A stretch of 19,021 bases of DNA from a virus (Duplodnaviria; Heunggongvirae; Uroviricota; Caudoviricetes). Location: IMG/VR virus record IMGVR_UViG_2529292882_000013; one strand, written 5' to 3'. This document shows, piece after piece, positions 14,940-15,758 of this stretch (positions are counted from its first letter, which is position 1; each line of letters starts with the position of its first letter). The translations under genes were made by a program, and so were the position numbers. Under the pieces are notes generated by a model. The model made no database searches, was not told where the DNA came from, and saw only the letters and a program-made list of their open reading frames with translations.

Positions 14940-15269
14940 AGACGCCCCAAAGAAACGCCACCGCCTGTGGTGGTGTTTTTCCTGTCTGGTGTTATTGAAA
15001 ATATTTTCAGATATATATTACCTGAGAGAAAGTTTTACCCCTCACCTGTCAATTCACTCACTGGAAATTTAATTATGAAATTACCTGTAAAGTTATTAAT
15101 GAGCCTTATATCTCTGGTCAGCGTTATTGCACGTGCCGGGGAATATAAAAATTACAGCCGGGATGAAATAAAATACTGGCGATATACATCATACAAGGGG
15201 GGGAAACTTCCGGAAGGTTTCACTGATGAGAAATTTTCCAGCGCCATTTACAACGGAAGAATATTTACA

Positions 15270-15758
15270 ATGAAACGTTTACATACCCTTATGTTATTTC
15301 TGGCGGTTCTGTTCACGGGCTTTAACTTTAACGCAGAAGCGGCTACCGTAAAACAAGCTCTTAGTTGTAACCCGGAAGCCTGGGCTGAACAACCTGGAGC
15401 GTGTCCATCAACGTACGAGTTGTACGAAGGTGACGCTACCTACAAAGCCGCTATCGACAAAGCATTAAAACCGGTCGGACTGAGCGGCATGTTCGGTAAA
15501 GGCGGCTATATGGATGGCCCTGGTGGAGGTATCACGCCAGTAAACATTAACGGTACAGTCTGGTTCCAGGGCGACGGTTGCAAAGCCAATACCTGCGGCT
15601 GGGACTTTATCGTAACACTCTATAACCCAAAAACCCATGAAGTTGTTGGCTACCGTTACTTTGGTTTAGATGACCCGGCCTACCTGGTTTGGTTCGGTGA
15701 AATTGGCGTGCATGAATTCGCGTATCTGGTGAAAAACTACGTAGCTGCGGTTAACTAA
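15270..15758 (+). CDS. Small secreted 4-Cys protein, tentatively Ivy-like (lysozyme-inhibitor-like fold)
   Basis: Signal peptide MKRLHTLMLFLAVLFTGFNFNAEA; the motif GCKANTCGWDFIV resembles the Ivy loop region CKPHDCG plus following beta-strand. The same frame is open upstream to 14967 with an earlier ATG at 15075 (MKLPVKLLMSLISLVSVIARA), so the start is uncertain. AT-rich relative to surroundings. Confidence 0.55.
   Translation: MKRLHTLMLFLAVLFTGFNFNAEAATVKQALSCNPEAWAEQPGACPSTYELYEGDATYKAAIDKALKPVGLSGMFGKGGYMDGPGGGITPVNINGTVWFQGDGCKANTCGWDFIVTLYNPKTHEVVGYRYFGLDDPAYLVWFGEIGVHEFAYLVKNYVAAVN

Follow-up and report, generated by a model that had tools for sequence, protein, structure and literature searches.

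Tandem signal peptides in an island-borne Escherichia coli reading frame: the probable scar of a deletion that joined a gene fragment to an Ivy-like gene

Why should a single reading frame encode two signal peptides in series? The question is raised by a hypothetical protein encoded within a 19,021-nucleotide stretch of DNA (IMG/VR record IMGVR_UViG_2529292882_000013), hereafter called the window, whose sequence is 100% identical to Escherichia coli strain FDAARGOS_497. The initial annotation of this DNA described two signal-peptide-like segments in tandem in one frame, and this description holds: the first segment starts at ATG 15075 and covers residues 1–21, and the second starts at ATG 15270 and covers residues 66–89. 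Two explanations had been offered, namely, a small upstream exported peptide fused in frame by loss of a stop codon, or alternative starts that give differently targeted isoforms. Comparison with homologous loci points to a third. The tandem signal peptides are very probably what a single deletion left behind in a CP4-like E. coli genomic island. The features of the reading frame and its flanks are listed here with their coordinates in the window.

14956..14985, + strand: rho-independent terminator-like hairpin (14956-14975) and T-run of the patatin gene (MFE -22.2 kcal/mol, z = -3.8)
14995..15000, + strand: TTGAAA hexamer, conserved at the related E. coli locus L007, without a matching -10
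15075..15758, + strand: chimeric ORF of 227 codons, annotated by RefSeq/PGAP as hypothetical protein WP_000775500.1 with its start at ATG 15075
15075..15137, + strand: signal peptide 1, residues 1–21, from a gene of a 180-aa secreted-protein family; A-R-A cleavage motif
15138..15263, + strand: relic, residues 22–63, the mature N-terminus of a truncated 180-aa-family gene, identified by homology
15197..15203, + strand: G7 homopolymer, derived from GGGGTGG by T to G; frameshift site (G6, G8 and G9 variants)
15254..15264, + strand: deletion junction, most likely 15263/15264; 180-aa gene homology on the left, Ivy-like leader TTTACAATG on the right
15270..15341, + strand: signal peptide 2, residues 66–89, 24 aa, with the native Ivy-like start and an A-E-A cleavage motif
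15342..15755, + strand: mature Ivy-fold domain, predicted to be periplasmic, 138 aa with four Cys, from profile, AF2 and Foldseek
15579-15596, + strand: loop CKANTC (CKANTCG at 15579-15599), counterpart of the Ivy inhibitory CKPHDC
15774..16184, + strand: gene for a 136-aa signal-peptide protein, next in the cassette; its Shine-Dalgarno sequence is strong

Signal peptide 1 (MKLPVKLLMSLISLVSVIARA) has K2 and K6 in its n-region and a hydrophobic core of 12 residues, and its predicted cleavage site follows A-R-A. Signal peptide 2 (MKRLHTLMLFLAVLFTGFNFNAEA, followed by AT) carries K67 and R68, a core of 12 residues, and A-E-A, from which a periplasmic location is read. Between the two lie 44 residues (22–65). 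The two segments have homologues in the signal peptides of two independent secreted-protein families, one for each segment, and are therefore not chance look-alikes.

The upstream segment can be traced to a gene for a longer secreted protein. At the E. coli locus L007, which lies in the same type of island, a 180-aa signal-peptide gene (L007:2098-2640) is found 133 nt after the patatin stop, behind an identical terminator. Residues 1–63 of the window ORF align without gaps to residues 1–63 of this protein (49% identity, E = 4e-18), and the cleavage motif falls at the same position in both (ARA/GEYK in the window, ANA/AEYK in L007). The 180-aa family, which includes the proteins P0039 and P0040, has no Pfam or NCBIfam name. 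Its signal peptide and first 42 mature residues are collinear with the window ORF, where homology stops at G-R-I (I63); the full-length member P0040 likewise has GRI at this place. Homology across the whole family protein, that is, across about 160 mature residues including the Cys-bearing C-terminal part, is not seen. Compared with the family, the window has the first third alone, the deletion having taken the C-terminal 117 residues and the four Cys among them. Because homology is limited to residues 1–63, the window sequence counts as a truncated fragment and is not classed as a member of the family. Divergence of this fragment from L007 is high (pS 0.80, pN 0.34), which indicates that it comes from an anciently diverged, once functional gene. 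A protein profile search for the intact parent gave relatives at about 50% identity and none closer, and distant-mode blastn of all complete E. coli genomes returned the relic itself alone, at identities of at least 90%.

One change within the relic has had visible consequences. The T to G substitution that made W43 a glycine (W43G) also created the G7 run, and an extra A to G substitution gave G8 in the allele of UTI89 and Nissle. Tract length varies between strains in both alleles, as the following exact-match counts indicate.

Window-type allele: in-frame G7, 1267 records; frameshifted G6, 27 records, and G8, 43 records
UTI89/Nissle-type allele: in-frame G8, 791 records; frameshifted G7, 16 records, and G9, 8 records

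Copies frameshifted at the G-run thus number 94 of the 2152 typed (4.4%), some of which may be homopolymer sequencing errors. In the window allele, slippage to G6 or G9 yields an ORF of 65–66 aa whose TGA overlaps ATG 15270 (ATGA), and slippage to G5 or G8 yields ORFs of 49–50 aa. PGAP calls the G-run-shifted copies frameshifted pseudogenes; their Ivy-like ORF is intact.

An overlap of the form ATGA is typical of coupled genes, and the 65–66-aa ORFs of the G6 and G9 variants could be taken to mean that the upstream segment is, or was, an independent gene of ~65 codons for an exported peptide, which has since lost its stop. Such an origin is extremely improbable. The segment breaks off in the middle of the protein with which it is collinear, and the tail of the short ORF (NFRKVSLMRNFPAPFTTEEYLQ) is an out-of-frame reading of sequence homologous to the 180-aa gene. 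The in-frame GGGGTGG, encoding the Trp conserved in the family, is the ancestral state, and the short forms are rare, with 27, 16 and 8 records per variant.

The downstream part is homologous to proteins that stand alone. A protein search recovered fused forms of 223–227 aa and unfused E. coli homologues of 160–161 aa (59–81% identity), the latter starting exactly at the second Met (MKRLH). Remote homologues of 147–170 aa, recovered by an exhaustive HMMER search, have N-terminal signal peptides of their own that align to the second Met form. The initial annotation had proposed that homologues be compared for a stop codon between the two segments, and one is present: the loci of the unfused homologues have an in-frame TAA 15–21 nt 5' of the ATG at which those proteins start. 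The nearest in-frame stop in the window is 333 nt 5' of ATG 15270. Comparison among homologues shows that the native start of the Ivy-like gene is ATG 15270. The fused form was also considered as the ancestral one and rejected, since every remote Ivy-like protein is short and begins with a signal peptide of its own.

The family of the downstream protein becomes apparent from its relatives and its predicted structure. Compared alone with Pfam, the window protein has no match, even at E <= 1. The Pfam family Ivy (inhibitor of vertebrate lysozyme; PF08816), with structures from E. coli (Ivy/YkfE; 1GPQ, 1XS0) and P. aeruginosa (1UUZ, 4PS6), is matched by 13 of the 16 aligned family members (best E = 2.5e-9). 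A family profile that includes the window protein matches the Ivy structures 1GPQ and 1XS0 at E = 7.6e-9 and 1UUZ and 4PS6 at about 1e-5. The AF2 model (pLDDT 85.7, pTM 0.77), when compared with the PDB by Foldseek, finds Ivy chains (1UUZ, 4PS6, 1GPQ, 1XS0) at all of ranks 1–8, with a probability of 1.00 and target-normalised TM-scores of 0.57–0.72; the next matches have E > 1. The Ivy fold, a central beta-sheet flanked by helices, is thus present in the model. The Sec signal of the Ivy family is present as well, with n-, h- and c-regions and AxA, and forms the N-terminus of all unfused homologues.

Where Ivy has CKPHDC, the window protein likewise has a disulfide-bounded loop, of the form C-K-x-x-x-C. 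In Ivy, the His of this loop inserts into the lysozyme active site. The inhibitory loop CKPHDCG with its active-site-plugging His is not found in the window protein, whose loop is without His. Sister E. coli alleles have CKAHAC, CKANAC, CKSNAC or CKSDAC in the loop, and remote relatives have CEAHNC. This variation between alleles could reflect diversifying selection on a putative target-binding loop. Unlike Ivy, the window protein has an extra N-terminal Cys pair and is encoded in a mobile island, within a cassette of small secreted proteins. From its profile and modelled fold, the best description of the downstream protein is that of a divergent Ivy-like subfamily carried by islands.

The gene order of L007 indicates how the two parts may have come together. 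There, what is left of a decayed 128-aa gene lies after the 180-aa gene, and a 160-aa Ivy-like gene comes next. Relative to L007, the window is without about 708 bp, comprising codons 64–180 of the first gene, the second gene with its stop, and the native Shine-Dalgarno sequence. The ancestral order would have been the patatin gene, a terminator, a secreted-protein gene of ~180 codons (gene 1), a secreted-protein gene of ~128 codons (gene 2), and a periplasmic Ivy-fold gene of ~160 codons. A deletion of ~0.7–0.8 kb, extending from just past codon 63 of gene 1 to 6 nt before the Ivy-like ATG, would have taken the remainder of gene 1, the whole of gene 2 with the stop codon that ordinarily stands in frame 15–21 nt ahead of the Ivy-like ATG, and the Shine-Dalgarno sequence native to the Ivy-like gene. 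An in-frame junction would then have arisen by chance (1 in 3), such that the start and signal of gene 1 read into the start and signal of the Ivy-like gene. Alignment of the loci shows this presumed ancestral gene order and the deletion. The idea of an upstream exported peptide fused by stop loss was correct in that two exported N-termini are fused; the first of them is the opening 63 codons of a ~180-codon gene, and the event was a deletion of ~0.7 kb.

The junction itself can be located closely. The bases 3' of I63, TTTACAATG, are found unchanged at another locus, L013, as the leader and start of its Ivy-like gene, and the junction flanks are alike on the two parental sides (GGAAGAA and GGAGAA). 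Because no intact close relative was found, the junction was placed via relatives at 49% identity. All fused proteins share the junction NGRIFT-MKRLH, and this common junction points to a single origin; the fusion appears to have arisen once. A sequencing or assembly artefact was considered and rejected, since more than 1,200 independent complete genomes share the identical sequence.

Chimeric ORFs and pseudogene remnants are found in decaying E. coli islands of the CP4-44, CP4-57 and CP4-6 type. The island in the window is of the same type, with which it shares genes for a dynamin-like GTPase, DUF932, an antirestriction protein, YeeS/RadC, YeeT and CbeA. As in those islands, deletion, IS insertion, premature stops and frameshifts have occurred, here at this very locus, which is, in the genomes compared, a repeated target of decay. 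Unlike other chimeras of CP4 islands, the junction is in frame and leaves two complete signal peptides in series, so annotation pipelines accept the ORF as one intact protein. The tandem signal peptides belong to a familiar class, that of chimeric ORFs produced by deletions in decaying mobile islands.

The fused arrangement is common in E. coli. Of 5426 complete E. coli genomes, 2285 (42%) carry the 195-nt relic, which always has at least 90% identity and differs by no more than 5% among 2286 records. A scan of genome contigs found a copy in Shigella flexneri (99% identity, fused) and one spurious match, with no others, so that its view did not reach beyond Escherichia and Shigella. The two parts of the ORF have diverged to different degrees: the relic has a pS of at most 0.024, and the Ivy-like gene has a pS of 0.14–0.49 between the same loci. 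Such unevenness implies that the Ivy-like gene has since undergone internal recombination. A large share of the variation downstream may be older than the fusion and may have been imported by recombination.

The two parts also differ in how they appear to have been selected. In the mature Ivy-like part, pN/pS is 0.07–0.27. The relic has 10 variable sites among nine loci, a small count, of which nine are nonsynonymous and one is synonymous. A neutrality test on an earlier count of 8:1 gave P = 0.41 for neutral evolution and P = 0.006 if omega is 0.2. Changes in the relic include S16R, within the hydrophobic core of the signal, and W43G, by which a Trp conserved in the 180-aa family is lost. The substitution patterns show the upstream 65 codons to be a putative unselected relic, and the Ivy-like protein to be the apparently conserved, selected unit.

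Insertion sequences have entered the locus in some strains. In strain AST216, an IS3-family element lies exactly at ATG 15075 (L004:1752-3022; the match starts at window position 15078), and in strain 5-1, ISEc12 splits the mature Ivy-like part near window position 15415 (L005:3470-6049). Further decay at the locus takes the form of an internal stop.

These observations bear on the possibility that the ORF is a functional gene with two starts, in which the frame is selected and the isoforms from 15075 and 15270 are differently targeted, for example, one membrane-tethered or retained and the other soluble in the periplasm. The frame is indeed open in about 95% of typed copies, in 2285 genomes and two diverged alleles, the RefSeq model is the 227-aa form, and the two starts, both in unstructured RNA, have Shine-Dalgarno sequences of similar weakness. 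The youth of the relic (<=5% divergence) accounts for the open frame, however. The extension evolves neutrally, with its nine nonsynonymous changes to one synonymous, S16R and the lost family-conserved Trp among them, and variants exist that are frameshifted, interrupted by IS elements or deleted for the start. No other family member, near or remote, has such an extension. Conservation of the extension under purifying selection, as a dual-start gene would have it, is not observed; instead, the extension is confined to one lineage, shows a 9:1 ratio, and is frameshifted in 4.4% of copies. A selected two-start gene is therefore unlikely, and the alternative-start isoforms suggested by the initial annotation, though mechanically conceivable, find no evolutionary support.

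The G tract suggests a different role for the fusion. A coding homopolymer with length polymorphism between strains, as in contingency loci, is present: lengths of 6–9 (up to 12 in protein databases) occur in independent strains and 94 of 2152 copies are shifted, with G9 found in both assemblies of strain SCU-101. The G7/G8 tract might on these grounds be a phase-variation switch that alternates the fused form with an uncoupled or ATGA-coupled one, thereby controlling the export or amount of the Ivy-like protein. Fusion and tract together would make a heritable switch, in which the in-frame state directs most translation to a 227-aa chimera that is mis-targeted or membrane-bound, and the G6 and G9 states give an ATGA-coupled, exported precursor of 162 aa. 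If true, this would mean a phase-variable periplasmic protein, resembling inhibitors of lysozyme or transglycosylase, in 42% of E. coli strains. Against a phase-variation role, the tract is recent and arose by point mutation in a neutrally evolving relic, and interrupted GGGGTGG alleles persist. The variants are a small minority, some of them possibly homopolymer sequencing errors, and other hallmarks of contingency loci were not found. Phase variation by the tract is very unlikely, and the chances that the complete switch operates as described are equally slim.

If the ORF is the scar of a deletion, the next question is which protein it yields. The ATG at 15075 is preceded by GGAA, with a Shine-Dalgarno pairing energy of -3.3 kcal/mol, and the ATG at 15270 has -3.5 kcal/mol at a spacing of 11 nt; both are weak next to intact homologous genes (-5.7 to -8.8 kcal/mol). 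The RNA at both starts is unstructured and AU-rich. GGAAG at 15255-15259, inside the junction region, is the sole Shine-Dalgarno-like element left for ATG 15270. Because both elements are weak, the choice of start cannot be read from the sequence, and because the native Shine-Dalgarno sequence is deleted and its remnant is no better than that of the upstream start, the use of 15270 is something we infer. The functional periplasmic protein most likely comes from initiation at 15270. After internal initiation from the weak GGAAG, the precursor would pass through the Sec pathway and be cut behind AEA, at residue 89, to release a 138-aa periplasmic protein. As a counterpoint, the relic frame is intact in >90% of carrier genomes and RefSeq models the 227-aa form; it could be the fused protein that is chiefly produced.

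Ribosomes that start at 15075 would make the 227-aa chimera, presumably an aberrant product. A precedent for its fate is the engineered THA-HA haemagglutinin chimera, in which an interior signal is translocated, is left uncleaved, and does not stop transfer (Finidori et al. 1987, PMC2114505). Like the window ORF, THA-HA has a working N-terminal signal, a spacer, and a second complete cleavable signal; unlike the E. coli ORF, it was studied in a eukaryotic ER in vitro system and has a long spacer. By analogy, the interior second signal of the chimera is probably neither cleaved nor a membrane anchor.

The island around the chimeric ORF is CP4-like. Its order is a dynamin-like GTPase, an RdcB/YjcZ-like gene, a patatin-like phospholipase, the chimeric ORF, and the 136-aa signal-peptide protein, followed by DUF932, an antirestriction protein, YeeS/RadC, YeeT and CbeA. 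The GTPase gene (10574-12970) shares 4 nt with the RdcB/YjcZ-like gene (12967-13872), which in turn shares 4 nt with the phospholipase gene (13869-14939), and the three thus look like a single operon. PADLOC gave weak matches alone for the GTPase/patatin run (LeoBC, 8.6e-5; phospholipase effector, 1e-4). A role for the three-gene run in membrane remodelling or defence is possible. The left end of a Mu-like prophage (window 800-7900) abuts the CP4-like island and includes the following genes.

1331-1861, - strand: gp11-like gene
1960-2484, - strand: Gam
3988-4926, - strand: MuB
4964-6952, - strand: MuA transposase
7367-7891, + strand: Mu c-repressor-like gene

At two further loci (L011:1598-5532 and L013:2106-5527), the Ivy-like gene belongs to a compact run of small genes, at least eight in number. 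This run includes a YfjT-like gene and genes for proteins of 128, 160, 136, 129, 158 and 202 aa, and those that were translated have signal peptides. No named family was found for the other small genes of the run, of which the window keeps just two, the Ivy-like gene and the 136-aa gene. Neither Pfam nor NCBIfam assigned a named family to the fusion product, to the 65-aa relic, to the 180-aa protein or to the small proteins encoded nearby, and PADLOC had no match for the Ivy-like gene or its neighbours. Rfam found no RNA families in 13800-19021 at E <= 0.1. Literature searches by accession number returned nothing, and the titles and abstracts of work on island-borne Ivy paralogues do not mention this locus.

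The DNA upstream of the chimeric ORF had drawn attention for its open frame and a possible promoter. The frame is open at 14967, as first described, and in fact opens at 14940, the codon after the patatin TAA (14937-14939), continuing to the stop at 15756-15758. The patatin stop, the relic and the Ivy-like gene share this one reading frame (14937-15758), the patatin gene by coincidence. GTG 14967 is merely the first start-like codon of a mechanically defined ORF. It was rejected as a start, being within the 3' arm of the terminator hairpin, and a codon in a terminator stem is not a credible start. The hairpin sequence is identical in L007; the segment 14941-14985 is also called a terminator on the - strand, so the hairpin may be bidirectional.

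A TTGAAA element was reported near 14994 as part of a possible promoter. The hexamer is there, at 14995-15000, and its role as a promoter element was not borne out: no acceptable -10 is found 16–18 nt 3' of it, and a promoter scan called no + strand sigma-70 site in 14800-15900. Over the first ~90 nt past the patatin stop, the window and L007 hardly differ, and divergence then begins abruptly (window 15022-15074 against L007:2045-2097), which suggests a recombination boundary near 15022. In the diverged stretch, the window has lost the AAGGAG Shine-Dalgarno sequence of the 180-aa gene.

What the deletion reading changes is, in practice, mainly annotation. It concerns ordinary gene decay and touches no long-standing open question. 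About 2,300 of 5,426 complete E. coli genomes encode WP_000775500.1 or one of its allelic variants, each of which would be the product of a gene fragment plus an intact Ivy-fold gene, and the pseudogene labels that PGAP gives to copies frameshifted in the relic would be wrong where the Ivy-like ORF is intact. The same comparisons point to an unnamed, highly allelic, island-borne Ivy-like subfamily in E. coli and Shigella, with a putative inhibitory loop that differs among alleles. The locus also provides a natural test case for how E. coli handles serial signal peptides.
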